Part shown: positions 47,172-59,910 of the stretch, in pieces
Position numbering within the stretch: the stretch's first letter is position 1
How the letters are laid out: each line of letters begins with the position of its first letter
Sequence record: NC_129898.1
Length of the DNA stretch: 64,000 nt
Direction: 5' to 3' (one strand)
From: a phage
Notes under the pieces: generated by a model
Told to the model about the DNA's origin: nothing
The model's database searches: none
What the model saw: the letters and a program-made list of their open reading frames with translations, nothing else
Position numbers and translations under genes: made by a program

Positions 47172-47619
47172 TACTGTAGAGGGAGATTTAATCTCCCTTT
47201 TTAAGAGCGGCACTGGTCACCTGATCCACGGTTGTAACTGCTTCCACACAATGGGTAAGGGTGTAGCAAAACAGATTGCCCGTGAGTTCCCTCAAGCATT
47301 GGAAGCTGATAAAACGACTACCTACGGTTGCCTAAGTAAGCTAGGTGCGTTCTCTCGGTGGGAGCACTTATCTCCGAAAGGTATTGTATACGGAATCAAT
47401 CTGTACACTCAGTTCTACCCAGGGCCTAATGCTGAATATTTCTCAATTCTGAAAGGCTTTGAGCGAGTCAATGAGATATTTAAGGGATCGACTTTACCAT
47501 TCTACATCCCTAAGATTGGGTGCGGCATAGGCGGCTTGAAGTGGGGACACGTGGAGGACGTTATTAACCTTGCCACTTTTGATATAGATATTATCGTGGT
47601 GGAGTACAAAGAGTGTTGA
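47161..47619 (+). CDS. macro-domain protein (ADP-ribose binding / ADP-ribosyl hydrolase fold)
   Basis: GTG 47161; EGDLISL...LIHGCNCFHTMGKGVAKQI aligns with macro-domain N-terminal motifs (GD..., AAN...GGGV); IPKIGCGIGGL matches the phosphate-binding loop. Confidence 0.6.
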   Translation: MIIDTVEGDLISLFKSGTGHLIHGCNCFHTMGKGVAKQIAREFPQALEADKTTTYGCLSKLGAFSRWEHLSPKGIVYGINLYTQFYPGPNAEYFSILKGFERVNEIFKGSTLPFYIPKIGCGIGGLKWGHVEDVINLATFDIDIIVVEYKEC

Positions 47620-47673
47620 CAGCAGGATTTTGAGGTGGTATAGTCACCACAACGACTAAGACAGGGGAACACT

Positions 47674-48065: not shown

Positions 48066-48128
48066 AAGGTTGACATCTGAAAACTGCAGTATATAATACA
48101 AACATAGACTAGCAGAGAGGAACAAATT

Positions 48129-48320
48129 ATGGTAATTTTTAATCGAGACGGTATCATAGTTAGACAGCACCCATTCCTTGAATACTATCAAATTGAGCAA
48201 TGGTGTTACGGAGATTGCAGTCACTCCTATGGGCAAAGTTGGGGATATCGCACAGTTTTTGAATCAACAGATCTTGATAAAGTAAAACAGAAAGTTTTAG
48301 AACTTCTTAACAACAAGTGA
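48129..48320 (+). CDS. hypothetical protein
   Basis: 63-aa ORF. Confidence 0.4.
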   Translation: MVIFNRDGIIVRQHPFLEYYQIEQWCYGDCSHSYGQSWGYRTVFESTDLDKVKQKVLELLNNK

Positions 48321-48330
48321 GTATTATACT

Positions 48331-48663
48331 ATGGTAACATTAGAAAGACGTAAAGCTATCGCCGCCACACTGGCAGACATCTTTTGGGATTGTAATTTAA
48401 AAGATACCCGATATTGCGGCGCATCTATAGATGTATTATTCCCACGGCCCACCATTGTTGCAATGGGTAGCCTACTGGGCGTAGTTGCAGGTGCATGGGA
48501 TAAGGAAGGCGGTTTCTATATCTGGCAGCCTGACTACGGGACCTGGAAAGAAGTAAGAGGTGCTGAGGACTTTGGACCTGCAGCTGCTAAGATGGATGGC
48601 TGGGAAATTTATGTTGGAAACGACATGAAGCTGAAAGGCGAGATTGTTTACTGGTTACCTTAA
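48331..48663 (+). CDS. hypothetical protein
   Basis: 110-aa ORF. Confidence 0.5.
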   Translation: MVTLERRKAIAATLADIFWDCNLKDTRYCGASIDVLFPRPTIVAMGSLLGVVAGAWDKEGGFYIWQPDYGTWKEVRGAEDFGPAAAKMDGWEIYVGNDMKLKGEIVYWLP

Positions 48664-49116: not shown

Positions 49117-49454
49117 CAGAGATCATCATTTCAACTGCAGGGTATGTATTCCTGACAATCATTGCGCTGATCATCTTGGTGGTGGTGTATGGATTTGTTA
49201 TCCTGCCTATTCTTGAGACATTTAGTTTGTGTCGGTGTTGGAGAAAGGCTTACGGACCACAGCCGTGGAAAGACTGGCCTCATCTGTTACGCATAGCGTT
49301 CTCCTATGCCTATGATCACTCCAGCAGTGCATGCATAACTGGGTACCACGCCCACAATTGGAACTGGGAAGGGTTGGGGAGATGGAATGTTACAAAGACT
49401 ATACCTCTACGCATGTACAAAGGAAAAGGTGGGATTGATGGGAATACCTGTTAA
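49113..49454 (+). CDS. membrane protein
   Basis: 113 aa with N-terminal transmembrane-like segment YVFLTIIALIILVVVYGFVILPIL. Confidence 0.45.
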   Translation: MTEIIISTAGYVFLTIIALIILVVVYGFVILPILETFSLCRCWRKAYGPQPWKDWPHLLRIAFSYAYDHSSSACITGYHAHNWNWEGLGRWNVTKTIPLRMYKGKGGIDGNTC

Positions 49455-50082
49455 AGACAGAAAAGTATGTGGTCGTGGAGTAAACGATTTAAAAGACAAA
49501 GTCCCAATGTACCAATCTGTTAATGGTAAGAGAGTACCAGAACCCCACTATGCTACATGGAAAGCATTATTCCAGAGGTGCTACGGCGATAACTCAAAGT
49601 ACCATACAGGTTGTGAAGTTGTAGAAGATTGGTGGTTGTTCTCAGAATTCTGGAAATGGATGGATACACAAGAGTGGAAAAGAGACGCTAAGAAGTTCAC
49701 TCTTGACAAAGATCTGAAAATCCCTGGAAACAGAATATACTCCCCAGAAACATGCATGTTTGTTCCACCACAAATAAACACCCTATTTGGCATAAGACAG
49801 GCAGCACGAGGGGATTTACCTTTGGGTGTGACACTTAGAAAAGATGTAAACAAGTATCTCGTGCATTGTCATCGAGATGGAAAAATTGTTCATGGCGGTC
49901 ATTTCGATGATCCACAGACAGCACACAAGGTGTGGCAAGAAATGAAACTTGAGGAGATGAAACTTCAGGCTATTAAAAACAAAGATGAGATTTGGCTGTT
50001 CGCCATTAAACGTGCAATAACTATCCTTGAGAATGATTTGAAAAATAATAAGGAGACTATAACATTGGTGAAATTTATTTAA
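49438..50082 (+). CDS. AP2-domain protein, putative HNH-AP2 homing endonuclease
   Basis: ATG 49438; C-terminal GVTLRKDVNKYLVHCHRDGKIVHGGHFDDPQTAHKVW resembles the AP2 DNA-binding domain; N-terminal W..F..RCY...GC.V...W.FSEFWKWM motif. Confidence 0.5.
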   Translation: MGIPVKDRKVCGRGVNDLKDKVPMYQSVNGKRVPEPHYATWKALFQRCYGDNSKYHTGCEVVEDWWLFSEFWKWMDTQEWKRDAKKFTLDKDLKIPGNRIYSPETCMFVPPQINTLFGIRQAARGDLPLGVTLRKDVNKYLVHCHRDGKIVHGGHFDDPQTAHKVWQEMKLEEMKLQAIKNKDEIWLFAIKRAITILENDLKNNKETITLVKFI

Positions 50083-50411
50083 GATATTTATGGTAGTATT
50101 TATTTTAAAATTATAAAAATTTTAGGCGATGAGGGAAAATATGTAATGGATTTTCCCTTATTTATCAGATATTTGCAGATATTTGGAAATCCTTAGAAAA
50201 TCAGAAAATGGATCGAAAACTAAAATGGATTTTTTCAAGACAGGCACGATAAGCTGCGCTGCTCATTCTATCGTTCGCACCGTACTTCAAATCACCATTC
50301 CAGATTTTCCGCACATACTCTCACCCCTCTGCCAGAACTTTCCCAACTTACCTTCAGCCTTTTATGACAATAAGTTAATTATTATCAGTAAGTTTTGATA
50401 CATCTCTCTCA

Positions 50412-50495
50412 GTACTCGATCTGTTTTTCATTTCAAAGATTGGATTTTCTGAAAATTTTTCTCGATAAATTTTTCGGTACTCGATCTGTTTTTCG
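50412..50495. repeat. 18-bp perfect direct repeat pair (gtactcgatctgtttttc) in an AT-rich non-coding block
   Basis: Copies at 50412-50429 and 50478-50495; further short repeats (aaatggatttt, ttttcgttttc) nearby. Confidence 0.85.
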
Positions 50496-50730
50496 TTTTC
50501 TGAATCGGATTTTCTTGAAATTGGTCCAGCACCAGATCTAAAATTTTTGGGAACGAAAGCGATTTTTCGTTTTCAGAAATGGATTTTTAAAATTTCTATA
50601 TGGGAATATTTTATGAGGTATTATTTTATATAGAATTGTCACGGTAGGTAATTAGCATGCTAACTAAATTTATGAAATGCGAAAAGTTCTCATTTAGAAT
50701 TTTGAATGATAATCATTCTCGTTTGCAGAA

Positions 50731-50906
50731 TAACGGGCACCCCCGGTGATTGTCTCCCGGCCCCTACTGCCCCGGCTTGTTATTATAGTATCACACAGGA
50801 CAAAGAAAGCAAGAAGTTTTTGCATAAATTTTTAGACGATAATGATAATCGTTCTCATTTCATGCAGCGCCCATCCCCGGTGGTTGTCTCCCCCGTCACC
50901 GGTGCC
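50731..50906. repeat. two direct copies of a roughly 45-70 bp dyad-containing repeat unit
   Basis: acgggcacccccggtgattgtctcccggcc at 50731 and cccatccccggtggttgtctcccccgtcaccggtgcc at 50870; inverted copy at 59118-59160. Confidence 0.85.
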
Positions 50907-51064
50907 TGCCGTCCTTTCGATATGTATATTGTGCCACCTGGCGGGGCCGCTGTCAACACTTTTCAAAAAAATTCTAACCTGATGCGCTAACCGTTGCAAC
51001 CTGGCGGGGCCAGCCTGGTGGGCCTATGCTATAGGATAGTAACAATTGAAGAGGAGGTACAAAA

Positions 51065-51243: not shown

Positions 51244-51272
51244 TTGACAGCTCGGACAGTTTTTGTTATTCT
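51244..51272 (+). promoter_or_regulatory. sigma70-like promoter (TTGACA-17-TATTCT)
   Basis: Consensus -35 with 17-nt spacer. Confidence 0.5.
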
Positions 51273-51325
51273 TATCCTCGCAAGGTGAACAACACCACAC
51301 TAATTAACAGAGAGGATAAAAAATC

Positions 51326-51523
51326 ATGAACGCCTACGGAATCAAAGTACGTCGCAGCACTCGCCAGGTGGTCACCGATCAAATGATTTGCCAGGTGGAT
51401 GTGACCATCAACAACGGGCAAGGCCTTTATAAATTCCGTCGCGGTCAGAGCTATACCCGGCAACAGCTTAATCGTTGCGCCCTGACAAAAGGCCAGATCA
51501 ACCACTGGTTTAATAAAAAATAA
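51326..51523 (+). CDS. hypothetical small basic protein
   Basis: 65 aa after RBS GAGAGGA. Confidence 0.5.
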   Translation: MNAYGIKVRRSTRQVVTDQMICQVDVTINNGQGLYKFRRGQSYTRQQLNRCALTKGQINHWFNKK

Positions 51524-51526
51524 GTA

Positions 51527-51555
51527 TTGACATATAGGCCGACACCAAATACACT
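51527..51555 (+). promoter_or_regulatory. sigma70-like promoter (TTGACA-17-TACACT)
   Basis: Hexamers with 17-nt spacer upstream of the ORF at 51588. Confidence 0.5.
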
Positions 51556-51587
51556 AAAAGCACAAAAGACACTGAGAGGATAAAATC

Positions 51588-51986
51588 ATGAAAACCACCA
51601 CCTTTAATTTTGATAATGCGGACTTTTCTTTTTCTGATGTCAAAAACTGCCGCCGTGATCGTGGATTTTACAAGGCCTATAATCTGGTGGGCCTGGACGA
51701 TGACAATAATTTGCACGAAGTAGCTGAGATCCGGTATTATGCCGCCGCCAGCGGGAACACTTACTACTGCGTTTTTTGGATACACGACAACAAGAACAAT
51801 AAGTACGGCTATACTGGCGGCAAGGCGAGCGGTCACGGTTACGATAAAGCTAACGCAGCACTTGAGAGCGCATTAAATGCTATGGGGATCACTGCCGACG
51901 GCTGGATCTACGAAGAAGAGTTTTTGTCGGCACTTGCTGCCCATCTAGGGTATAAAAAGCACATTGTGACATGTGCCCACGAATAA
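51588..51986 (+). CDS. hypothetical protein
   Basis: 132 aa after RBS GAGAGGA. Confidence 0.55.
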   Translation: MKTTTFNFDNADFSFSDVKNCRRDRGFYKAYNLVGLDDDNNLHEVAEIRYYAAASGNTYYCVFWIHDNKNNKYGYTGGKASGHGYDKANAALESALNAMGITADGWIYEEEFLSALAAHLGYKKHIVTCAHE

Positions 51987-51991
51987 AAATC

Positions 51992-52048
51992 ATTGACACG
52001 CTGCAAAATTCAAGTAAACTAGACACAAAAGGCGGGAATGTTTCCCGC
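51992..52048 (+). promoter_or_regulatory. promoter plus 5'UTR stem-loop cassette (TTGACA ... ggcggg-aatgtt-tcccgcc)
   Basis: -35 TTGACA at 51992, -10-like aaacta, perfect stem-loop at 52030-52048, then aacacaaa and RBS. Confidence 0.5.
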
Positions 52049-52068
52049 CAACACAAAGGAAAAAGATC

Positions 52069-52473
52069 ATGAATAAGAACGTACGCCGCATCATGAACGA
52101 GTTGGCAAACGATGAAAAAATTATTGACATGCATTTGATCAACATTTGCCGCCGTTGTGTAACATATAACAACCGCGCCGCAAAAGCGCGTGAGATGAAC
52201 GCAAAAGGCACCTTAAAGCCATTCCAGGTGGTGGTAAAGGCCATTAAAAATGTAACTAATACGGCAAACCAGGTACAGGGGAACACCAACGAGAGTACCA
52301 ATATTGATCCGGCTTACATCATGAAACGGATCCGGACCTATAAGAACAAAGAGCAAGTGTATAATGTTATAGACTGGTTGGATTCTATGGGCGACGTGGT
52401 GTACAATAGATTCTCGGCAGCTATTGAGATCCAGCTTGACAGGTTGGACGGTAAAGTACTGAAAACTTATTAA
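52069..52473 (+). CDS. hypothetical protein
   Basis: 134-aa ORF. Confidence 0.55.
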   Translation: MNKNVRRIMNELANDEKIIDMHLINICRRCVTYNNRAAKAREMNAKGTLKPFQVVVKAIKNVTNTANQVQGNTNESTNIDPAYIMKRIRTYKNKEQVYNVIDWLDSMGDVVYNRFSAAIEIQLDRLDGKVLKTY

Positions 52474-52484
52474 GTTTATTTTTA

Positions 52485-52508
52485 GATGGCCTTGACTCTA
52501 GGGCCATC
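52485..52508 (+). repeat. conserved hairpin element gatggccttgactctagggccatc (copy 1 of 4)
   Basis: 7-bp stem with TTGACT in the loop; preceded by tttatttttag and followed by aataaagtaaac; copies at 53107, 53437 (variant), 56829. Confidence 0.8.
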
Positions 52509-52553
52509 AATAAAGTAAACTAGTCTCAACTAAGCGAAAAAGGGGGCTTTAAG

Positions 52554-52673
52554 ATGAGCACTACACGCCAATACACAAAGGTAACTATTATCGTTTGCGT
52601 TGTCGGTTACATCCTGGCGCAAATGTTAATGAGTAGCGCCAACAGTTTTGCAAAATTTTTCTTAAATTTTTAA
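52554..52673 (+). CDS. small hydrophobic peptide (39 aa)
   Basis: ATG after RBS AAGGGGG; central hydrophobic segment. Confidence 0.4.
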   Translation: MSTTRQYTKVTIIVCVVGYILAQMLMSSANSFAKFFLNF

Positions 52674-52730
52674 TTGACAAGTAAATCTCAATAAGTATAC
52701 TTAAACACGTAAACGGGAAAACTTCCCAGA
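52674..52730 (+). promoter_or_regulatory. promoter plus stem-loop cassette, copy A (TTGACA-16-TATACT, degenerate stem-loop)
   Basis: Nearly identical over about 55 nt to the cassette at 54512-54568. Confidence 0.55.
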
Positions 52731-52752
52731 ACACACAAAAGGAGAAAACACC

Positions 52753-53094
52753 ATGACTACTATGACCGCCGCAGAAAAAGCTATGCAGATCGCCGCGCTG
52801 AAAAAACAGATCGCAGACCTTGAGAACAAGATCGATAACTTTGAAATCGACGAGGACAAGTACGACGAAAACTATAATGAATGGCTAGACGAGATCCACG
52901 GCGAAATTATGATCGGTAACATTTCTTTTCTTCCGTCGCGTATCCTCAAAGAGTTAGATCCTATTGCTTACCGCTGCGGATTTAGCGATTACATCGATAG
53001 CCTGGATATTGAGGACGATGAAGAGTACCAAGAATTGCAGATAGAGCTGGGAGAAGTGAAAGAGGAGCTTTCAAAGCTGGAAGAGAACGAGTAA
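52753..53094 (+). CDS. hypothetical acidic protein
   Basis: 113 aa after RBS AAGGAGA. Confidence 0.55.
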   Translation: MTTMTAAEKAMQIAALKKQIADLENKIDNFEIDEDKYDENYNEWLDEIHGEIMIGNISFLPSRILKELDPIAYRCGFSDYIDSLDIEDDEEYQELQIELGEVKEELSKLEENE

Positions 53095-53106
53095 AATTTA
53101 TTTTTA

Positions 53107-53130
53107 GATGGCCTTGACTCCAGGGCCATC
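53107..53130 (+). repeat. conserved hairpin element (copy 2)
   Basis: gatggccttgactccagggccatc with the same flanks. Confidence 0.8.
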
Positions 53131-53181
53131 AATAAAGTAAACTTTACACTGTTAACACTGAACTAATGAGGAGTTAAAACT

Positions 53182-53427
53182 ATGGCAGCACTAATCACCA
53201 AATATTATGCGCCTACCAACACAAAAAGCGCCCGTATCATGGTAAAAGGCTTCGGACGTAAAAAGGTTTACGCCTGGGACTATTCCCTAGATATGGAAGA
53301 CAATTATACCAACGTAATGACCGATTTTATTAATGATCTGAATAAACAGATCTTAACCGACTACAAAGTGACCGATATTGCTTACATAGGTGAAGGCGGG
53401 ATCTGTTTTGTAGGCATTGTGAAATAG
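53182..53427 (+). CDS. hypothetical protein
   Basis: 81 aa after RBS GAGGAG. Confidence 0.5.
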   Translation: MAALITKYYAPTNTKSARIMVKGFGRKKVYAWDYSLDMEDNYTNVMTDFINDLNKQILTDYKVTDIAYIGEGGICFVGIVK

Positions 53428-53436
53428 TTATTTTTC

Positions 53437-53460
53437 GGTGGTCCTGGTTGCAGGGCCATC
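53437..53460 (+). repeat. conserved hairpin element (copy 3, variant)
   Basis: ggtggtcctggttgcagggccatc with a similar 5' flank. Confidence 0.6.
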
Positions 53461-53502
53461 TATAAAGATAATTTATTAACACCATGAAAGGAGAAAGTAC
53501 AC

Positions 53503-53856
53503 ATGATCAGCGGGGCTAGTTTTATTATTGGCGCTATTGCTACGGCTTTAATTGTAAACAAGATCCAGGATAAAAAGGAAAGAGGAAGTACCGCCCTTGC
53601 AGAATATCCATTTTGGACATTTAACGATAACGAAGATTATATTATAAAGTATAAAAATAAAGAAGGCGACCAAGTAACACCGCGACCGATCCCGGCTTAC
53701 AAAATGCAGGAAACACTATACCGCTTGGAGGCGGGGGGCGCAAAAATTGTTGACTTTTGGGGATACGACCACACAGATCAGGAAGTTATAAAGCGCCGTA
53801 TCCGGGCTATTCAGGCCAATATTGAGGTTAACAAGGGGGGAATATATGAAAATTAA
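53503..53856 (+). CDS. hypothetical protein with N-terminal hydrophobic segment
   Basis: 117 aa after RBS AAGGAGA. Confidence 0.5.
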   Translation: MISGASFIIGAIATALIVNKIQDKKERGSTALAEYPFWTFNDNEDYIIKYKNKEGDQVTPRPIPAYKMQETLYRLEAGGAKIVDFWGYDHTDQEVIKRRIRAIQANIEVNKGGIYEN

Positions 53857-54043
53857 TTTCGAGAAAATTGTAAAGCGCCCTCATGATTCCGAAGAGTTGC
53901 CAGAACGCCGACAGCGCAACAATAAACTGAATAAGCCAAAAAGGTTTGGGAAGATCTGGCGGAATCATTATGATCGTAAATTGCCCGGCCTACTTTTGGA
54001 ACGTGAACGACAGGCAGAACGATACCGCCATAAAGACAAATAA
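53846..54043 (+). CDS. small basic protein
   Basis: ATG 53846 after RBS AAGGGGGG (track begins at 53822). Confidence 0.45.
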   Translation: MKINFEKIVKRPHDSEELPERRQRNNKLNKPKRFGKIWRNHYDRKLPGLLLERERQAERYRHKDK

Positions 54044-54049
54044 CAACCA

Positions 54050-54080
54050 ACGCCCCGCCATTGTGCGGGGCTTTTTATTT
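54050..54080 (+). terminator. rho-independent terminator
   Basis: Hairpin ccccgc-cattgt-gcgggg followed by ctttttattt. Confidence 0.65.
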
Positions 54081-54201
54081 CTATCCTACGAATAGCGCCC
54101 CTGGTTGGCCCTGTAAGCGCCAAAAAGGCCCCCACCTATGCAATCGCCCCCTTTAACCTGAAAACATCGCTCAGGGCCGTTTTATAGCGTTAAAAATATC
54201 A

Positions 54202-54229
54202 TTGACATCGTCAACAGGTTAGCTATACT
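54202..54229 (+). promoter_or_regulatory. sigma70-like promoter (TTGACA-16-TATACT)
   Basis: Upstream of RBS AAAGGAG and the ORF at 54262. Confidence 0.5.
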
Positions 54230-54261
54230 AACCACATCAAAGAGAGAAAGGAGTAAACGCC

Positions 54262-54522
54262 ATGCGTAAATTAAAAAATTTTGATAAAGTTGATGTTATC
54301 CTGAATAATTTTTACTACTGCAACAACAAGGCTATTTGGTGGCGGGATAGTTCCACCGATAAAGTCAAGGCGCGCTTTCTTCAGGGGCACTGGCAAGGCC
54401 GCCCAGTGATTAAAATCATGGGGCAATTGGTAGCGTTTAAAAATTGCCGCCGTGTTGATGACGTTGAGGAGATTTTAAACATTTTGCGCCACAATAATTT
54501 AAAAAATAGTGTTGACAAGTAA
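54262..54522 (+). CDS. hypothetical protein
   Basis: 86-aa ORF. Confidence 0.5.
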   Translation: MRKLKNFDKVDVILNNFYYCNNKAIWWRDSSTDKVKARFLQGHWQGRPVIKIMGQLVAFKNCRRVDDVEEILNILRHNNLKNSVDK

Positions 54523-54568
54523 ATCTCAATAAGTATAATTAAACACACAGGCGGGAAAACTTCCCGCC
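54512..54568 (+). promoter_or_regulatory. promoter plus stem-loop cassette, copy B (TTGACA-16-TATAAT, ggcggg-aaaact-tcccgcc)
   Basis: Consensus promoter then perfect stem-loop at 54550-54568; duplicate of the cassette at 52674. Confidence 0.6.
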
Positions 54569-54596
54569 ACTAACAAAGAAAACAGGAGAAAATATC

Positions 54597-55220
54597 ATGA
54601 CCACCGTTAACATTACCACAGGTTACAATTTATCTTTCGACGTGCTGACCGACGAACAAAAAGAAAAAGCCATTGAAATGGTCCGCGAAAGAGAAGAACG
54701 CAGCGGGGATGATTTTTTCGCAGAAAATGTAATTGATTACTACAAAGAATATATCTTTCCAGAGTACGGCCTTGAGGATACCGAAGTACATTGGTCCGGC
54801 TTTTGGTGTCAAGGCGATGGCGCATCGATTAGTGCTGAAAATGTAGACTTAGAAAAATTCTTGCGTAAAGTCAAGGCCCTGACCAAGTTCAGATCAATTC
54901 GTCACTTGTTCGGCACAATGCACGATGGCGAACTATCCGCCAGTGTTGAACGCGACAAGTACAGCCATTACAGCCATGAAAACACTGTAAGCGGGTACAT
55001 TGATACCACTTGGATAGATCTGACCGCCAAACAAGAAAACAAAGTGGAAGATCTGGAAGAATTGATCACCGAGACGGTACGGGAGCTATCCCGCAAGGTT
55101 TACGTAGACCTTGAGGAGGCCTATCTAGAACAGTTCACCGCAGAAAACCTGATCGGCCTTATTCAGGCCAATGATTGGCGGTTTGATGTCGATGAATATG
55201 GTGAGATGACTTTTTCATAA
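54597..55220 (+). CDS. hypothetical protein
   Basis: 207 aa after RBS AGGAGA. Confidence 0.55.
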   Translation: MTTVNITTGYNLSFDVLTDEQKEKAIEMVREREERSGDDFFAENVIDYYKEYIFPEYGLEDTEVHWSGFWCQGDGASISAENVDLEKFLRKVKALTKFRSIRHLFGTMHDGELSASVERDKYSHYSHENTVSGYIDTTWIDLTAKQENKVEDLEELITETVRELSRKVYVDLEEAYLEQFTAENLIGLIQANDWRFDVDEYGEMTFS

Positions 55221-55228
55221 ATAAAGTG

Positions 55229-55289
55229 TTGCAATAACCTAAAAACCTGCTATATTAAAACTCAAGGCGGGCGAGACGTTTGCCCGCCA
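55229..55289 (+). promoter_or_regulatory. promoter plus stem-loop cassette (TTGCAA-16-TATATT, ggcgggcgagacgtttgcccgcc)
   Basis: Stem-loop at 55267-55289 followed by aacacaaa and RBS AGAGGA. Confidence 0.5.
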
Positions 55290-55313
55290 ACACAAAACAA
55301 AGAGGATAACATC

Positions 55314-55694
55314 ATGAAAAATACTACCAAGGCTATTGACACCGTTATGTTTAACCTGGTTACATTCCGTGAAGATATGAAAGATCTTCCGCGTGAAACA
55401 GTGTGCGACCATATCGAAAACTATCGCAAACTAATCAAAGAGTTGCCTTTAAAACGTGATCAATATGCGGCTAACGCCATGCTTAATGCCATGATCAAAA
55501 AGATGATCCAGTGTGATTTAACCCTGGCCTATGATTATGCAGGCGGTCGTTTTGCAGTATACAATCAGCCCGTGCCCGGTATGAGTACCACCGAAGAATT
55601 GCACGCGCTCAATCTAAAACAGGACGTGTGGGATAGTATGCCTCGCGTGGTGGTATGGGTAGAAAGCGGAAAGATTTACGGCGATAATTTTTAA
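55314..55694 (+). CDS. hypothetical protein
   Basis: 126-aa ORF. Confidence 0.55.
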   Translation: MKNTTKAIDTVMFNLVTFREDMKDLPRETVCDHIENYRKLIKELPLKRDQYAANAMLNAMIKKMIQCDLTLAYDYAGGRFAVYNQPVPGMSTTEELHALNLKQDVWDSMPRVVVWVESGKIYGDNF

Positions 55695-55758
55695 TCAGGT
55701 AGCAGGCGGCATATTTGCCGCCTTATTGTTGATCAGAACTGCAAAAGAGGTACATAGA

Positions 55759-56130
55759 ATGGAATTTATTATTTTGGCTGTATTGGTTGCCTTATTTAAC
55801 GCCTGGATCGCTGGCAAGATGGGAAGATCCGCCTTTTTATGGTTTATTATATCTATTTTCCTGGGGGTGGTTGCAACTATTGTATTGGTTATCCTTGCAA
55901 TTGTTGACAAGGGGAATAATAGAAAGGGTAAAGTATTTTCAGACCTGTACGACGCTCAAACTTTTGTTAACGCCTATTATAGTGATCTCCCAGTCTCCCT
56001 ACGTTGCAGCCTTGCACAACAGGTTTTCGATGAAGCTAAAACCAGAGACCACGCCCATGAGATTTGTTTAACTGAGGCGGATCGCTTATTTGAGAGGAAT
56101 AGAAAATATGTGGGCCAGCCGTTTAAATAA
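55759..56130 (+). CDS. membrane protein (two predicted TM segments)
   Basis: ATG 55759 after RBS AAGAGG (track begins at 55726); hydrophobic helices. Confidence 0.5.
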   Translation: MEFIILAVLVALFNAWIAGKMGRSAFLWFIISIFLGVVATIVLVILAIVDKGNNRKGKVFSDLYDAQTFVNAYYSDLPVSLRCSLAQQVFDEAKTRDHAHEICLTEADRLFERNRKYVGQPFK

Positions 56131-56329
56131 TACCACGTTAATTAATCCATTTAGTGAAGATTTGAGGCCAGCCGCCTGGCGGGATGGATTCAATAACGAA
56201 AAATTTACTTTTAGGCCTGATCTTGAGGAATTTTATAACAATGGATCGAACAACGACAGAGATAATTTTTCTTGCGGTGTGTGTCGTGATCGGACTACTG
56301 GGAGCCATTGCAAACCACGTAACCGCTAA
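56108..56329 (+). CDS. hypothetical protein (alternative frame 56241-56366 also possible)
   Basis: ATG 56108 after RBS GAGAGGA; overlaps a second plausible small TM ORF in another frame. Confidence 0.3.
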   Translation: MWASRLNNTTLINPFSEDLRPAAWRDGFNNEKFTFRPDLEEFYNNGSNNDRDNFSCGVCRDRTTGSHCKPRNR

Positions 56330-56349
56330 CAGAAGGAAAGGGGGAGACG

Positions 56350-56469
56350 ATGACACCCAAGGATAAGCCCCGCACCGATAAGGCGCGCCGTGTTATGGTA
56401 TGGCTGGAGATCATCGCCCTTGAAATATTGTTAGGCGTAGGGATGTATTTTATCGCCGTACGTACCTGA
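56350..56469 (+). CDS. small membrane peptide (39 aa)
   Basis: ATG after RBS AAGGGGGAG; hydrophobic C-terminal half; terminator follows. Confidence 0.45.
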   Translation: MTPKDKPRTDKARRVMVWLEIIALEILLGVGMYFIAVRT

Positions 56470-56473
56470 TAAC

Positions 56474-56506
56474 GGCCCCCGATCCCTGGGGGCCTGACTT
56501 TTTTCA
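56474..56506 (+). terminator. rho-independent terminator
   Basis: Hairpin ggccccc-gatccct-gggggcc followed by tgacttttttc. Confidence 0.65.
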
Positions 56507-56528
56507 AAAAAATTTTTCTTCCGGGGTG

Positions 56529-56582
56529 TTGCAATCCGGTCCGGGATATGGATAATAACAATCAACGGGGAGACACTCCCCA
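56529..56582 (+). promoter_or_regulatory. promoter plus stem-loop cassette (TTGCAA-16-GATAAT, ggggag-acac-tcccc)
   Basis: Shares the spacer core atatggataataa with the cassette at 57347. Confidence 0.5.
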
Positions 56583-56615
56583 CCACACAGACAAAGTTCC
56601 AAAAGGAGAAACAAA

Positions 56616-56816
56616 ATGAGCAACAATATCCGCGTTATTAATTTCAAAAAAGAAGAAAAAATCGCTGTGCTGGTTGATGGTCAAGAAATATTCAAGGGGT
56701 ATTATGAAGATCATCAGGCGGCGATCAGTATTACCCGCGTAATTGGTTACCATAATTTTTACCCTCAAGGCGCTGAGGCAGCAGTAAAACGAATTAAAGA
56801 GATCGTAGGCCTGTAA
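56616..56816 (+). CDS. hypothetical protein
   Basis: 66 aa after RBS AAGGAGA. Confidence 0.5.
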   Translation: MSNNIRVINFKKEEKIAVLVDGQEIFKGYYEDHQAAISITRVIGYHNFYPQGAEAAVKRIKEIVGL

Positions 56817-56828
56817 AATTTATTTTTA

Positions 56829-56852
56829 GATGGCCTTGACCCCAGGGCCATC
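56829..56852 (+). repeat. conserved hairpin element (copy 4)
   Basis: gatggccttgaccccagggccatc with the same flanks. Confidence 0.8.
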
Positions 56853-56902
56853 AAATAAAGTAAATTTAAACCCTGCTAAAATAATCAGTGCAAAAAGGAG
56901 CA

Positions 56903-57208
56903 ATGATCATGTTTATACCCGCCAATAATCTTTATTTCTTTGATGGTCAGATCGTAGACGGCGTGGAAGTTGAGATCACTGGATGTCAAGGCGGCCAGGT
57001 AATGATCTTCCGCAATAGTGCCTTTAACGATCATTTTATTACAATGACTGTGGAAGTTAAAAAGCTGGATGATAAGAAAACACTCATTGACTATTCCGTG
57101 AAAGATCATCCAGACTACCACATGATCTATGGTGATTTGTGCATTGTTGACCGTGACAAGGTGGGCGGCATTGTGATCGCTATTGTGAACGATGTTTTCT
57201 CTGAATAA
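56903..57208 (+). CDS. hypothetical protein
   Basis: ATG 56903 (or 56909) after RBS AAAGGAG (track begins at 56888). Confidence 0.5.
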   Translation: MIMFIPANNLYFFDGQIVDGVEVEITGCQGGQVMIFRNSAFNDHFITMTVEVKKLDDKKTLIDYSVKDHPDYHMIYGDLCIVDRDKVGGIVIAIVNDVFSE

Positions 57209-57346
57209 TTCCGGCAAATGATGCAAAATAAGGCCCATGGCAGGGCCTGCAGCGATATAATCACACAAAGGCTATGCGGTTGCATGGCCTTTTTTATTTT
57301 AGCGCTACAGCGGCCCCCAAGGCGTTTAAAAAATTTTTAAAAGTAC

Positions 57347-57398
57347 TTGCATCAAGTCCGACAATATGGATAATAAGACTTATCAGGGGGCGGCCCCC
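57347..57398 (+). promoter_or_regulatory. promoter plus stem-loop cassette (TTGCAT-16-GATAAT, gggggcggccccc)
   Basis: Hexamers with 16-nt spacer, stem-loop at 57384-57398, then RBS and ATG 57431. Confidence 0.5.
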
Positions 57399-57430
57399 AA
57401 TCATTAACCGGATAGATAGGAGTTAAAATC

Positions 57431-57715
57431 ATGGCTATTGTTACTGTTGGCGATGTAGTAGAAATGGAAGCAAAATACTTAAAAGCGGGTATGCATATCC
57501 TACGCAACGATCTTGAACTAGTCCTGACAATGGTCGACTATAATCCCGGTCAGGATTATCCAAGCATCGACTACTTTTTCCAGTATGTTGATGAAGAATT
57601 AAAAGAGGATGAGGCTTATCAGGGTGAATTTTGTAATTTCTTTTGCCCTGACGAGATTGTAAAAGTTATCTATCAACCTGGCGTACCTTTCCCGTTGCAC
57701 GCCATCAATAAATAA
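57431..57715 (+). CDS. hypothetical protein
   Basis: 94 aa after RBS TAGGAG. Confidence 0.55.
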   Translation: MAIVTVGDVVEMEAKYLKAGMHILRNDLELVLTMVDYNPGQDYPSIDYFFQYVDEELKEDEAYQGEFCNFFCPDEIVKVIYQPGVPFPLHAINK

Positions 57716-57778
57716 GCCTGGCGGGGCCGAAAAAGGCCCCTCCTGAAAATATGAAAAAATAAAGATAGGTGAATCATC

Positions 57779-58012
57779 ATGATGGAACAAATTAAACGCG
57801 CTGAGGCTATTAATGGTAATGTGATCTATTTTGTCAGCAAAAACGAAAAAGGCGTACCCTATGCGGCGGTAATAGTACAGCCTGACGGCGATTATTGGTG
57901 CACTGTGTACGGCGCTTATTCTTTTGGGCGTCCAGTGCATGATAAAATTTTGAAAGTAGCGAACCCTACCGGGAAAAATATCACAGCAGAAAAATTTTTT
58001 GAAAATAGTTGA
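57779..58012 (+). CDS. hypothetical protein
   Basis: 77-aa ORF. Confidence 0.5.
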   Translation: MMEQIKRAEAINGNVIYFVSKNEKGVPYAAVIVQPDGDYWCTVYGAYSFGRPVHDKILKVANPTGKNITAEKFFENS

Positions 58013-58076
58013 CAACAAACAACAATCTAACAAAGCATAATACATAAGGCGGCAATGATGCCGCCAACATGACAGA

Positions 58077-58340
58077 ATGAGAAACATCATTTACAGACTG
58101 ACAAAACGCAACATTATGATCGCCACCGTGATCGCTTGCCTTTTCGCTTTCGTGAGTAACGCAACGTTTAACGCCGTGGGCGGGGCGATGTTTAATGCTG
58201 GCAGCGTTTCAACAGCTAACACAATGATCGATTGTTTGCAACTTTTCTTTTATGTTGCCTTTCGTTTAAAAATAGCTTGCAAGGTAGACCGTTTTGATTT
58301 ACCTTTCATTTGTGGCGGCGTGATCGCTATCGTATGTTAA
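58077..58340 (+). CDS. hypothetical hydrophobic protein (start uncertain)
   Basis: 87 aa; preceded by a TTGACA promoter-like site and stem-loop ggcggcaatgatgccgcc; weak RBS. Confidence 0.35.
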   Translation: MRNIIYRLTKRNIMIATVIACLFAFVSNATFNAVGGAMFNAGSVSTANTMIDCLQLFFYVAFRLKIACKVDRFDLPFICGGVIAIVC

Positions 58341-58507
58341 GGATCAGAAGATGGGAAAACTCTCAATTCTGTTGTTTTATCAAAAACCTTGACAATATCA
58401 GAATGTACAGACGGTTAAAAATAATTGTTGACACCAGGCGCGGATCTGGTAAAGTGTACGACATAGGGCGGGGCAATAAGGCAACGCCCATTAATGATGG
58501 TGGAATC

Positions 58508-58612
58508 ATGTTAGAAAAAATTTTCACGGTTGTAGTAGTTGGCATGGCATTATCGGTTGGAGTGGTTGCAACTATGGCTAACATGATCCTATCTTCCCAC
58601 GGTATCGGGTAA
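58508..58612 (+). CDS. small membrane peptide (34 aa)
   Basis: Internal ATG of track ORF 58310-58612; the region upstream of it carries promoter-like sequence, so the longer ORF is unlikely. Confidence 0.3.
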   Translation: MLEKIFTVVVVGMALSVGVVATMANMILSSHGIG

Positions 58613-58613
58613 G

Positions 58614-58838
58614 GTGAAACAAATGATCACGAACAAAACAGGGAAAACGGAATTTTTACGCGGCTTGCAAATAGGCAAGCCTGAGATCTGGCATTGCACT
58701 AAAACACCACGTGACGAAATGAAAGACTTTACCGCCACGCTGAAGCGGGTAAAAATATCCATTACGCAGAAAAAAGCCTTGATAGTGGTGGAAGGTGAGA
58801 TCCCTCAAACCGTTGTTATTGTTGAGCGTACAGCATAG
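58614..58838 (+). CDS. hypothetical protein
   Basis: 74-aa ORF. Confidence 0.45.
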   Translation: MKQMITNKTGKTEFLRGLQIGKPEIWHCTKTPRDEMKDFTATLKRVKISITQKKALIVVEGEIPQTVVIVERTA

Positions 58839-58927
58839 TTTAATCTATACCGTACGCCCCATTGACTAACAAAGCATAAGCAGGCGGCGGTGACCGCCTT
58901 GAACGCAACAGAAAGAGAATAGAAAAC

Positions 58928-59062
58928 ATGAGAAAGATAATTATTACCATGGGGATCGTGGCGGCAATGTTGGCGATCTTTCCCTTTATGGTTAGGTATG
59001 TGCTGATCAGTGTTGTCCTGATAGGCAGTGATCTATTGGAAACGGTTGGCAACTGGTTTTAA
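58928..59062 (+). CDS. small membrane peptide (44 aa)
   Basis: Manual ORF, strongly hydrophobic; preceded by a promoter-like site and stem-loop ggcggcggtgaccgcc. Confidence 0.35.
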   Translation: MRKIIITMGIVAAMLAIFPFMVRYVLISVVLIGSDLLETVGNWF

Positions 59063-59117
59063 GATAATAAACAGGGCTTGAAATGGTCCTGTTTTTTGTT
59101 ATACTTATCTCACGGGT

Positions 59118-59160
59118 GGCACCTGGCGACGGGGGGAGACAATCACCGGGGGTGCCCGTT
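59118..59160. repeat. inverted copy of the 50731/50870 dyad repeat unit
   Basis: gggagacaatcaccgggggtgcccgtt is the exact reverse complement of 27 nt at 50731-50757; the extended match resembles the 50870 copy. Confidence 0.85.
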
Positions 59161-59182
59161 ATATAAAAAACTATAAAAACAG

Positions 59183-59211
59183 TTGACATCTGCCAGGTGG
59201 TTAGGTAACAT
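59183..59211 (+). promoter_or_regulatory. sigma70-like promoter (TTGACA-17-TAACAT)
   Basis: Followed by short stem-loop ggggcaaaagtgccc and RBS GAGAGGA before ATG 59266. Confidence 0.5.
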
Positions 59212-59265
59212 TTATCTTGAAGGGGCAAAAGTGCCCACACAACAACCGGAAGAGAGGAAAACATT

Positions 59266-59538
59266 ATGTCAAGCTGGATTAATCAAGAAATCGAATCACG
59301 TTTTAATGCTATTTGGGATCTCATCGAAAAAGAGGACGGAACATCAAGCCCTTATCTCAATAACCTGGAATTTCATTTTGTGGAAGCGATGAACGCAGAA
59401 CATGATCACGAAGGTGGCGCGGATGAGTTCGCTCAAGGGTATGGCTTCAACAATGCCAACGAAATGATTGAGGCGGTTGTACTTCAGGCTGAGGAAGATT
59501 ATCAATTAAAAACACTTGAATTTTGCCGCCGTAAGTAA
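59266..59538 (+). CDS. hypothetical acidic protein
   Basis: 90-aa ORF. Confidence 0.55.
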   Translation: MSSWINQEIESRFNAIWDLIEKEDGTSSPYLNNLEFHFVEAMNAEHDHEGGADEFAQGYGFNNANEMIEAVVLQAEEDYQLKTLEFCRRK

Positions 59539-59875: not shown

Positions 59876-59910
59876 AAGGGGCCTTAAGGCCCCTTTCTTT
59901 TTTGTTTTCT
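59876..59910. terminator. rho-independent terminator ending the plus-strand early block
   Basis: Hairpin aaggggcc-ttaa-ggcccctt followed by tcttttttgtttt. Confidence 0.7.

Follow-up and report, generated by a model that had tools for sequence, protein, structure and literature searches.

Promoter and stem-loop cassettes in front of small genes in an rV5-like phage

Introduction

Between positions 51,244 and 59,265 of the phage record NC_129898.1 (a stretch of 64,000 nucleotides, called the window in what follows) lies a row of very small genes, and in spacer after spacer the same elements are found in the same order: a promoter, a GC-rich hairpin a few nucleotides downstream of it, a ribosome binding site and a start codon. 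The question raised by this locus is what a hairpin is doing at the beginning of so many short messages. The reading which, on balance, we consider probable is that the stretch is an early-gene region built of self-contained expression modules, in which a hairpin close to the 5' end stabilizes the messenger and the repeated sequences drive the shuffling of promoters and genes.

Matches to the stretch 51244-59265 were obtained in 244 phage records, the best being those in the Escherichia phages FV3 (96.4%) and HMD-6 (97.9% over 51.9-55.3 kb), with rV5 at ~90%. By these matches the source is a Vequintavirus, that is an rV5-like myovirus, and the impression in the preliminary description that the phage does not look T4-like is borne out. 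The stretch is the counterpart of rV5 open reading frames (ORFs) 196-168, all of them hypothetical in the rV5 record, which marks five sigma70 promoters in the corresponding region. The genes behind the cassettes are indeed tiny: 22 of them, coding for 34-207 aa, all on the + strand, with a coding fraction of 74%. The ten largest proteins gave only PHROG matches of unknown function and no significant Pfam match. For comparison the homologous 14-16 kb were taken from 13 Vequintavirus genomes and every cassette was aligned, which gives 14 genomes including the window; besides FV3, HMD-6 and rV5 the relatives named below are ECP32, slur16, DrSchubert, A140, PMBT16, navn, MaxTheCat, nimi, Mangalyan and EdH4.

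The type A cassettes

The inventory combines a reading of the spacers with a promoter consensus scan and a hairpin census, in which GC-rich perfect hairpins are clustered in 52-59 kb. The elements called type A have AT-rich upstream sequence, a -35 hexamer resembling TTGACA, 16-17 nt of spacer, a -10 hexamer, a gap of 9-13 nt, a GC hairpin, an A/C-rich leader, the Shine-Dalgarno sequence (SD) and the ATG. Nine spacers (A1-A8 and A10) carry both the promoter and the downstream hairpin, and a tenth (A9) has the hairpin with a truncated promoter; all of them lie on the + strand, as do the other features described below unless a strand is given. The earlier count of at least ten such spacers therefore holds for nine, of which six are robust, and fails for the tenth at its promoter.

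How far this departs from chance was estimated by counting promoter-like sites (at least 9 of 12 consensus positions) with a perfect GC stem beginning 8-12 nt after the -10, the expectation being derived from hairpin density. The + strand of the window has six such pairs where 0.63 are expected, and the - strand has none. All six are within 51.9-59.3 kb and five of them are type A cassettes; the sixth is a weak promoter-like match at 53070 before the hairpin of element B2 (see below) and belongs to no type A cassette. The architecture exists where it had been described, and it is far beyond chance.

The individual cassettes, with the promoters written as -35 hexamer, spacer length and -10 hexamer, are as follows. 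A1 (51993-52068) has its -35 TTGACA at 51993-51998 and its -10 TAAACT at 52015-52020; after a gap of 10 nt comes the hairpin GGCGGGAA-TGT-TTCCCGCC (52031-52049), followed by the leader AACACAAAGGAAAAAGATC and the ATG at 52069. It is present in the 13 relatives. A2 (52674-52752) has the promoter TTGACA-16-TATACT, annotated as P192 in rV5, then a gap of 13 nt, a weak hairpin GGGAA-AAC-TTCCC at 52715-52727 and the ATG at 52753. Its paralogue A3 (54512-54596; the two form repeat family D3) has a perfect promoter, TTGACA-16-TATAAT (12/12), and 10 nt further on the hairpin GGCGGGAA-AAC-TTCCCGCC (54550-54568), with the ATG at 54597. In A4 (55229-55313) the promoter TTGCAA-16-TATATT and a gap of 9 nt precede the hairpin GGCGGGCGA-GACGT-TTGCCCGCC (55266-55288) and the ATG at 55314.

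A5 and A6 are related to each other (repeat family D8). A5 (56529-56615), which comes after a terminator at 56474, has the promoter TTGCAA-16-GATAAT, a gap of 10 nt, the hairpin GGGGAG-ACA-CTCCCC (56567-56581) and the ATG at 56616, while A6 (57347-57430) has TTGCAT-16-GATAAT, a gap of 11 nt, the hairpin GGGGG-CGG-CCCCC (57386-57398) and the ATG at 57431. A7 (58009-58076) has a TTGACA, a poor -10 at the canonical spacing, the hairpin GGCGGCA-ATGA-TGCCGCC (58048-58065) and the ATG at 58077. The 87-aa gene behind it (58077-58340) has no recognizable SD, its ATG lying 11 nt past the hairpin, and the same is seen in FV3 and HMD-6. A8 (58428-58507) consists of TTGACA-16-TAAAGT, a gap of 10 nt and the hairpin GGGCG-(14-nt loop)-CGCCC (58466-58489), with the ATG at 58508. 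A9 (58862-58927; hairpin AGGCGG-CGGTGA-CCGCCT at 58882-58899, ATG at 58928) is the truncated one, where a TTGACT stands just 8 nt from a -10-like box so that functional spacing is absent. A10 (59183-59265), finally, has TTGACA-17-TAACAT, annotated as P168 in rV5, a gap of 11 nt, the hairpin GGGCA-AAAG-TGCCC (59223-59236) and the ATG at 59266.

The hexamers score 9-12 of 12 in the consensus scan, and the 25 nt upstream of the promoters are 74% AT, against 56% window-wide. In the linker behind the hairpin A makes up 55% and C 21%, G and U being scarce, and the SD is unpaired in most of the leaders when these are folded to minimum free energy. The hairpin stands at anything from 5 to 34 nt from the ATG, whereas its distance from the -10 is tightly kept. 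The stem given as typical at first, GGCGGG-N4-6-CCCGCC, proved to be that of A1, A3 and A4 only, with the arms 7-11 nt apart, and the other cassettes have different G-run/C-run stems. Sequence repeats among the cassettes comprise the families D3 and D8 already mentioned, the GGCGGG stems (D4) and four families of SD-ATG segments (D6, D9, D14 and D20).

Hairpin stability is -8 to -17 kcal/mol in all type A cassettes except A2. When the sequence from -10 to ATG was folded and compared with dinucleotide shuffles, strong z-scores were found for A3 (-6.16), A7 (-4.76), A4 (-4.52), A1 (-3.86, with a leader fold of -14.6 kcal/mol) and A5 (-3.39), a moderate one for A8 (-2.51) and weak ones for A10 (-1.80), A2 (-1.39) and A6 (-0.83). 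By folding, 6/9 of the cassettes with promoter and hairpin are thus robust.

Conservation in relatives and in a second genus

The mean pairwise nucleotide diversity in the 14 genomes differs between the parts of the cassette. It is 0.000 in the -35, 0.019 in the SD, 0.041 in the -10 and 0.061 in the stems, and it rises to 0.091 in the pre-hairpin sequence, 0.104 in the promoter spacer, 0.108 in the linker and 0.174 in the loops. The preliminary description would have been wrong if the stem-loops were not conserved as structures in relatives; a stem is predicted at nearly every type A site across the 13 relatives, being weakened or shifted in a few cases such as A5 in A140. The arms of A4 vary jointly (GGCGGGC/GCCCGCC, GGGGC/GCCCC and GGGGGC/GCCCCC, with a G.U variant in ECP32). 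A6 occurs in 12 variants in the 14 genomes, and the stem is predicted in 12/12 of them, weak or shifted in some and with + strand G.U pairs in several.

The loops behave differently. Those of A1 (52031-52049), A4 (55266-55288) and A9 (58882-58899) are reverse-complemented in some strains: the A1 loop in slur16 and DrSchubert, the A4 loop in FV3 and A140, and the A9 loop between strain groups which have either CGGTAA or TTACCG. Judged from the aligned strains, such inversions are the signature of hairpin-mediated template switching, which shows that these palindromes fold in DNA too. The inversions also show that neither the sequence nor the orientation of the loops is under selection, and conserved stems with variable or inverted loops fit the notion that the structure matters and the sequence does not. 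Classical covariation statistics on orthologues were set aside, the relatives being ~10% diverged and the changes explicable by conversion or template switching. In their place we have used position, the diversity of paralogues and across genera, the nucleotide diversity of each element class and strand asymmetry.

A more distant comparison was possible with phage A7_1 (unclassified Vequintavirinae), which was reached via a 50%-identical protein and has no nucleotide match to the region. At least 13 of its spacers have the type A layout, with different stems, for example GCGGGAA, GGGGGAA, GGGGCG and GGCGGGG. It has 16 promoter-hairpin pairs at 8-12 nt where 0.45 are expected, and one on the other strand; a few of the 16 are alternative promoter calls for a hairpin already counted, which leaves ~13 distinct hairpins. 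The gap between -10 and hairpin is 9-12 nt in both genera despite the diverged stems, loops and pre-hairpin sequences. The type A layout is common to at least two genera and is not universal in the Vequintavirinae. A scan of 50-61 kb against Rfam at E<=1 gave only a chance small RNA match at the 59876 terminator, and the hairpins match no family.

Type B elements

A second kind of hairpin, which the preliminary description had overlooked, forms the four-copy repeat family D1. Its members, of ~50-60 nt, are found at 52472-52523 (B1), 53094-53145 (B2), 53424-53475 (B3) and 56816-56868 (B4), in each case immediately 3' of a stop codon. In the predicted fold (-21 to -27 kcal/mol) an internal loop separates an upper stem of 10 bp from a lower A-U stem of 10-12 bp. 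In B1, an interrupted hairpin of ~50 nt, the upper stem is GATGGCCTTG-ACTC-TAGGGCCATC over the A-U lower stem; a -35-like TTGACT (52492-52497) stands at the tip of the hairpin and a -10-like TAAACT follows at 52516-52521. Such a weaker promoter with the -35 at the tip is present in three of the four copies (B1, B2 and B4). In B3 the fold is kept and the TTGAC is lost, the upper stem being GGTGGTCCTG-GTTG-CAGGGCCATC with G.U pairs, and its lower stem has one compensatory change from T-A to C-G in rV5, PMBT16, navn and MaxTheCat. In B1, B2 and B4 the TTGAC is constant while the adjacent loop bases are variable, for which reason these three may, as far as their sequences tell, double as hairpin and promoter. 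A7_1 also has two hairpins like those of type B, with the -35 at the tip and different arm sequences.

To compare RNA with DNA structure, both strands of each variant were folded as RNA. For type B, 31/31 distinct variants are more stable as the + strand, by 5-14 kcal/mol and through G.U pairing; B1 folds with -22.9 kcal/mol as + RNA against -14.5 as - RNA, and B3 with -22.4 against -8.1. Of the type A variants, 22 are more stable as the + strand and 6 as the - strand. Among the terminators, folded in the same way, those at 57267 and 59069 show a + bias and the other four are about equal on both strands. The asymmetry suggests, as far as predicted folds can, that we are dealing with sense-strand RNA structures, and likewise argues against symmetric DNA operators or pure cruciforms; in both respects type B is the clearest case. 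The type B elements, as hairpins of the sense RNA, probably have to do with the 3' end of the preceding message, as its mark or its processing site.

A comparison can be made with the RNase III sites between the early genes of phage T7, where the helix is intercistronic, extends over about two turns of double-stranded RNA and often has an internal loop, and the R sites have no promoter-like boxes. The type B elements are similar to them in having a predicted helix of ~20 bp with an internal loop after a stop codon and a predicted stability which is specific for the sense RNA. They differ in showing no sequence similarity to the T7 sites and in the -35/-10-like boxes of three of the four copies.

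Promoters without hairpins, and terminators

The preliminary description had ascribed one architecture to the whole range. This is true of the type A spacers and does not extend to three other promoters, at 51244, 51527 and 54202, which have no GC hairpin. The first (51244-51272, TTGACA-17-TATTCT, P195B in the rV5 annotation) has a leader (51273-51325) in which a 5' UAUCCUC pairs with the SD GAGGAUA (-10.7 kcal/mol, z -4.02), and in this predicted fold the pairing may occlude translation of the 65-aa gene behind it. The second (51527-51555, TTGACA-17-TACACT, P195A) and the third (54202-54229, TTGACA-16-TATACT, P186), which comes after a terminator at 54052, have unstructured leaders.

That terminator (54052-54071) is a hairpin followed by TTTTTATTT. 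The terminator scan gave further ones with U tracts at 55704-55723, 56474-56494, 57267-57292, 59069-59094 and 59876-59895, so that there are six canonical U-tract terminators in total, none of which had been seen earlier. These six show that a message which is meant to end in this region is given a U tract. Behind the type A stems there are 0-3 T in 8 nt and thus no U tract. In the scan of the window no type A hairpin was called as a + strand terminator, and these hairpins were listed only as weak minus-strand candidates. The possibility of antisense terminators which these calls raise was rejected, because the pre-hairpin motif of A7_1, for example GTATCACATA, yields no U tract on the opposite strand.

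Recombination in the cassettes

The cassettes at 52674-52730 and 54512-54568 had been described as a near-exact duplicate between unrelated genes. They do have an identical run of 26 nt and the flanking proteins are unrelated; the identity as a whole is only 49/57 (85% over 66 nt). The 16-nt promoter spacer of A2 is that of A3 in this phage only; in 12/12 of the relatives with an A2 cassette, HMD-6 among them, the spacer is of a different, A2 type. By this comparison the "duplicate" is due to a short patch of gene conversion from A3 to A2 in this lineage.

It had also been suggested that recombination junctions in related genomes might fall in the cassettes. When the window was chained against the relatives and the junction sequences were inspected, junctions of this kind were found as a deletion, a 13-nt repeat, conversion and chimeras. 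ECP32 lacks 52474-53094 and has a single B1/B2 hybrid, with the left flank of B1 and the right flank of B2. Most relatives hold an extra type A cassette with a 59-aa gene which is absent from the window, and the junction is a 13-nt repeat of UP and -35 sequence (GAAAATAGTTGAC). Two further insertions or deletions are flanked by a 19-nt leader/SD repeat and a 26-nt terminator-hairpin repeat. Three junctions lie outside the cassettes (58924-58941, 57222 and 59062) with homology of gene starts or a few bases of microhomology only, so not every event uses a cassette. An apparent 1.5-kb insertion in FV3 and rV5 relative to the window (3 pieces over ~5 kb in the blast table) was shown by the chaining to be an artefact, which arises because the type B elements are repeated.

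Between the genes for 77 aa and 71 aa lies a hot spot of gene content (58013-58622), which has at least seven arrangements in the 14 genomes, made from ~6 small genes with a type A cassette before most of them. The g64 cassette of nimi is the promoter and hairpin of FV3 g87 joined to the leader of g64, and the crossover is inside the hairpin (GGGCGGCAAT..TGCCGC). Conversely, g87 has two promoter modules, one in FV3 and the other in HMD-6 and the window, which are fused at one hairpin; at A7 the FV3 module is TTGACA-16-TAGAAT followed by 10 nt and the same hairpin. Three unrelated promoter modules stand before the hairpin shared with g64 in FV3, Mangalyan and nimi, and in each the -10 is exactly 10 nt from the stem. 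A segment of ~100 bp (58351-58451) with two promoter-like sites (58388 and that of A8 at 58428) is absent from FV3 and HMD-6, which retain the A8 hairpin directly after the preceding gene.

It is conceivable, and no stronger word seems justified, that the GC hairpin, besides being an RNA element, is the designated crossover point of a gene-cassette system which needs no integrase. A "promoter module" would lie on one side of it and a "leader plus gene module" on the other; extrusion of the hairpin or stalling of replication at it would enable phages in the same cell to combine promoters and ORFans anew. RB49-like T4-type phages, with their 87-89% identical ORFan (see below), could be among the partners. 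The hairpin-joined chimeras, the loop inversions and the conversions are compatible with this and give no proof that the hairpin raises the rate of recombination.

What the hairpins might do

Any proposal has to deal with what was observed directly: a layout which is not random and is conserved, a difference between the two strands, and junctions left by recombination. The stabilizing role of the hairpin, the early firing and the exact start sites are predictions from the sequence, and in what follows they should be read as such. In the model a type A module would begin with AT-rich sequence of the UP kind, followed by a near-consensus sigma70 promoter which the RNA polymerase of the host reads in its unmodified state. 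The promoters are very probably early promoters of the host sigma70 type, because they are near-consensus, have UP-like AT-rich flanks and contain the most conserved bases of the spacers. Transcription by E. coli RNA polymerase generally begins 6-8 nt past the -10. Together with a gap of 9-12 nt this gives a predicted 5' overhang of 2-5 nt; with a start ~7 nt past the -10, only 2-5 nt of the transcript would precede the GC hairpin, and an A/C-rich, largely unstructured leader with the SD and then the small gene would follow it.

A stem-loop in this position would most likely shield the 5' end against RppH and against the kind of RNase E attack which depends on that end, and the early mRNA would be stabilized whatever gene follows, as by the 5' hairpins of ompA and papA. 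It was reportedly found by Emory et al. in 1992 that the stem is needed within 2-4 nt of the 5' end and that its sequence is unimportant. The phage T7 gene 10 leader, with a 5' stem-loop, is a phage example of an mRNA stabilizer. RNase E acts >10-fold faster on RNA with an accessible 5' monophosphate than on a base-paired 5' end (review, PMC3997798, which cites the ompA/papA work of Emory 1992, Bouvet and Belasco 1992 and Bricker and Belasco 1999). Like the ompA and papA elements, the type A hairpin is simple, lies a few nucleotides from the predicted 5' end and is followed by an open leader with an SD and no U tract. There is also the same precedence of structure over sequence, in that the stems differ between cassettes and genera and are conserved or co-vary, whereas the loops have the highest diversity. 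Unlike ompA and papA, this would be a serial device on about ten adjacent small early genes, placed inside a recombining cassette, and its function is deduced from sequence. Since promoter, hairpin and leader-SD sequences recur every few hundred bases, they are substrates for recombination, and homologous recombination, gene conversion and hairpin-driven template switching would delete, insert and re-pair promoters and genes.

Several points weigh against this interpretation. The weakest link is the start sites: a published start-site map for any Vequintavirus was not found in the literature, and the overhang of 2-5 nt is a prediction from geometry; at an overhang of 5 nt the protective effect would be weak, given the limit of 2-4 nt reportedly found by Emory et al. 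Three strong promoters of the same region have no GC hairpin, and three of the hairpins are weak (A2 with about -4 to -5.5 kcal/mol, A6 and A10 with poor z-scores). Hairpins outlast degenerate or absent promoters (A7, A9, and A8 in FV3), so that proximity to a 5' end is not always kept. PVP-SE1 (Seunavirus) has few promoter-linked hairpins, none of them type A, in the promoter-hairpin scan. The cassettes are paralogues, and constant spacing could partly be inheritance and not selection; conversion and template switching, moreover, could keep the arms complementary without selection, by which the argument from covariation is weakened.

Terminators or attenuators are the obvious alternative. They would limit read-through from the upstream promoter and leave each gene on its own promoter, and we regard this as unlikely. 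One PeSL (promoter-early stem-loop) hairpin, of the T4-like systems discussed below, lowered the expression of lacZ to a degree comparable with the rrnB T1 terminator (PMC2839356), two hairpins, that of A1 and one of the hot spot, are labelled putative terminators in the EdH4 record, and the hairpins which have outlived their neighbouring promoter (A9; A8 in FV3) would be accommodated. The defining feature of an intrinsic terminator, a hairpin with a U tract, is however not found in type A, which also gave no + strand terminator calls, while the six canonical U-tract terminators stand in the same region. Being downstream of their own predicted starts, the type A hairpins would stop their own transcripts equally, ~25 nt from the start, which would be self-defeating, and the hairpins of phage Phi1, from which the comparison is drawn, sit inside the promoter. 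The stabilizer fits better than the terminator because of the coupling to the -10, the freedom of sequence, the missing U tract, the open leader and the proper terminators nearby.

The hairpins could also be GC palindromes without any RNA function, kept for, or hitch-hiking with, recombination, template switching or cruciforms, and owing their position to common descent. That cassettes belong to the sequence families D3, D4 and D8, that crossovers fall inside a hairpin, that gene conversion takes place between cassettes and that the loops of A1, A4 and A9 are inverted is all in keeping with this. Common descent does not easily explain why the gap of 9-12 nt is kept across two genera and unrelated promoter modules; a cruciform would not show the G.U pairs that favour + strand RNA, and the hairpins are confined to the coding-strand side of the promoters. 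This explanation is in our opinion rather improbable.

In a third proposal the hairpin and the A/C-rich leader would serve translation, as an insulator or a standby platform for the ribosome which keeps the SD open. The composition of the leader, the unpaired SD in most predicted folds, the low diversity of the SD and the SD-ATG repeat families (D6, D9, D14 and D20) speak for it. Equally open leaders are, however, found at the promoters which have no hairpin, so that access to the SD shows no need for one, and it is the -10 and not the SD to which the hairpin is coupled, the distance to the ATG varying from 5 to 34 nt. We consider the proposal quite doubtful. Binding sites for a phage or host protein, as in antitermination of the nut/boxB kind or an early shut-off operator, are highly improbable: a promoter-proximal place in the transcript, as for the lambda nut sites, the GGCGGG common to several stems (D4) and the type B inverted repeats over the -35, readable as operators, would suit them, but the conserved boxA and fixed boxB loop of a nut site are missing, stems and loops vary freely between cassettes with loops inverted between strains, no boxA-like or other motif beyond the promoter is shared, no Rfam family is matched, and type B is 5-14 kcal/mol weaker on the other strand, as expected of RNA and not of a symmetric operator.

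Relation to known systems

PeSL cassettes have been described in the T4-like phage pairs RB49/Phi1, PST/T4 and nt-1/KVP40 (Arbiol et al., 2010, PMC2839356; Comeau et al., 2014, PMC4122927), and the preliminary description had compared the present cassettes with them. The traits reported for PeSLs include mini-circles of the cassette which arise in the course of infection. Much of the likeness stands. There is a near-consensus sigma70 promoter with AT-rich upstream sequence, even with the AAAA..GTTGTTGACA look, a stem-loop of a G-run and a C-run, an A/C-rich leader, and then SD and ATG; the cassettes are intergenic, stand before ORFans and are clustered in a plastic region; and insertions, deletions, replacements and chimeras between close relatives have their junctions in the cassettes. 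One of the PeSL subclasses on record has its hairpin at the -35, as type B does.

What does not agree is the position of the type A hairpin, which is 9-13 nt past the -10 in the 5' untranslated region of its own promoter, whereas PeSL hairpins are upstream of or within the promoter, be it before or over the -35, in the spacer, over the -10 or immediately ahead of the start site. For PST and nt-1 the published position is immediately before the promoter (PMC4122927). In a scan of Phi1, 13/15 hairpins either lay in the spacer, starting directly behind the -35, or enclosed the -10, and 1/15 was downstream. Because the type A hairpin is inside the transcript of its own promoter, the role ascribed to PeSLs, to terminate upstream transcription, cannot be transferred directly. 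The host phage is also different, being a Vequintavirus. When cassette A3 was compared with all phage records by blastn, only Vequintavirus gave matches apart from the Krischvirus Phi1, which matches the promoter part alone with the chance-level E 0.9, and this match was rejected as a shared cassette. On these grounds of sequence we regard the cassettes as a PeSL-like system and not as a member of the PeSL group.

Promoters have been reported before in this part of the phage world. In the Certrevirus phages CB7, CR3, CR8 and CR9 the early promoter is AAAA-N3-TGTTGAC-N17-19-TATAAT (PMC7344957), and sigma70 promoters were proposed for rV5 in the genome paper (PMC3606486). The certreviruses are Vequintavirinae too, with the same promoter consensus and UP-like element, concentrated among short hypothetical genes. 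Both papers list promoters only and mention neither a downstream hairpin nor a role in recombination, and no earlier description of these hairpins in rV5-like phages was found in the literature. Promoter cassettes and stabilizing 5' hairpins are known ideas; the combination, the lineage and the crossovers inside hairpins are new details.

There are some traces of contact with other phage groups. The ORF 48129-48320 (63 aa) has 87-89% aa identity to ORF260 of Phi1 and RB49-like phages. The DNA of 48117-48337 is 83% identical to Phi1 over 221 nt, the homology running from the SD to the SD/ATG of the next gene, and the promoters differ; upstream of ORF260 the Phi1 promoter region (1420-1500) is a triple tandem repeat of the 26-nt unit AAGTACAACCGAAAATAAGTTGTTGAC. 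The similarity of this ORFan suggests a recent exchange of the gene between Vequintavirus and T4-like phages. A tblastn search with the 90-aa protein behind A10 gave no Krischvirus among 40 of the 147 matching records, and homologues are found in T1-like and other phages. In the 207-aa gene (54597-55220), 54647-55168 has ~65% nt identity in PBECO4/G17-type jumbo coliphages and one 54-kb phage, and by this similarity it is another small early gene common to unrelated phage groups.

Other features near the region

Some further observations were made in and around the early region. The segment 49421-50178 (~750 bp; ORF 49387-50082, 231 aa) is absent from 13/13 relatives, which have ~100 bp there instead, and it may be a mobile insertion. 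In some relatives the neighbours of the site are annotated as homing endonuclease or endonuclease VII; the ORF itself was considered as an AP2/HNH homing endonuclease and rejected, as there is no Pfam match at E<=0.01. The next ~1 kb (50100-51040) has no convincing ORF and is probably the "non-coding" box of the rV5 map. It contains three copies of a 47-nt repeat, 65-74 nt apart (50402-50587; D2/D5), as well as the short repeats D17 and D19, and is possibly an origin or another cis-acting site.

A 13-nt motif, ACCTGGCGGGGCC, which contains CCWGG, occurs in 5 copies with <=2 mismatches where 0.4 are expected; they are at 50936, 50999, 51188 and 57716 on the + strand and 59928 on the - strand, all in spacers around the early region. 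The hairpin GGGGCC-GAAAAA-GGCCCC (57716-57745) stands right after a stop codon, has neither promoter nor U tract and overlaps a motif of this kind. At 47616-47660 the promoter TTGACA-17-TATAGT has its -10 within the inverted repeat GGTG-GTATAGT-CACC. This resembles the PeSL subclass with a hairpin over the -10, and the 4-bp stem may be chance.

Significance

The 5'-terminal place of the hairpin suggests that promoter, stabilizer and open leader form a natural unit which is portable and through which captured genes would be expressible early. Such a unit could help to predict where engineered insertions are tolerated and expressed, and it could supply parts for synthetic biology. It could also guide annotation, as public records call some of these hairpins terminators. 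The alternative combinations of cassettes and genes in the sequenced relatives make the turnover of the ORFan region directly testable. If the interpretation is true, the PeSL principle, in which regulatory cassettes double as handles for the shuffling of ORFans, extends beyond the T4-like phages. Vequintavirus and the A7_1 group would then be at least two genera in which it is at work, and both belong to the Vequintavirinae, which are widely employed in phage therapy and in biocontrol of E. coli O157.

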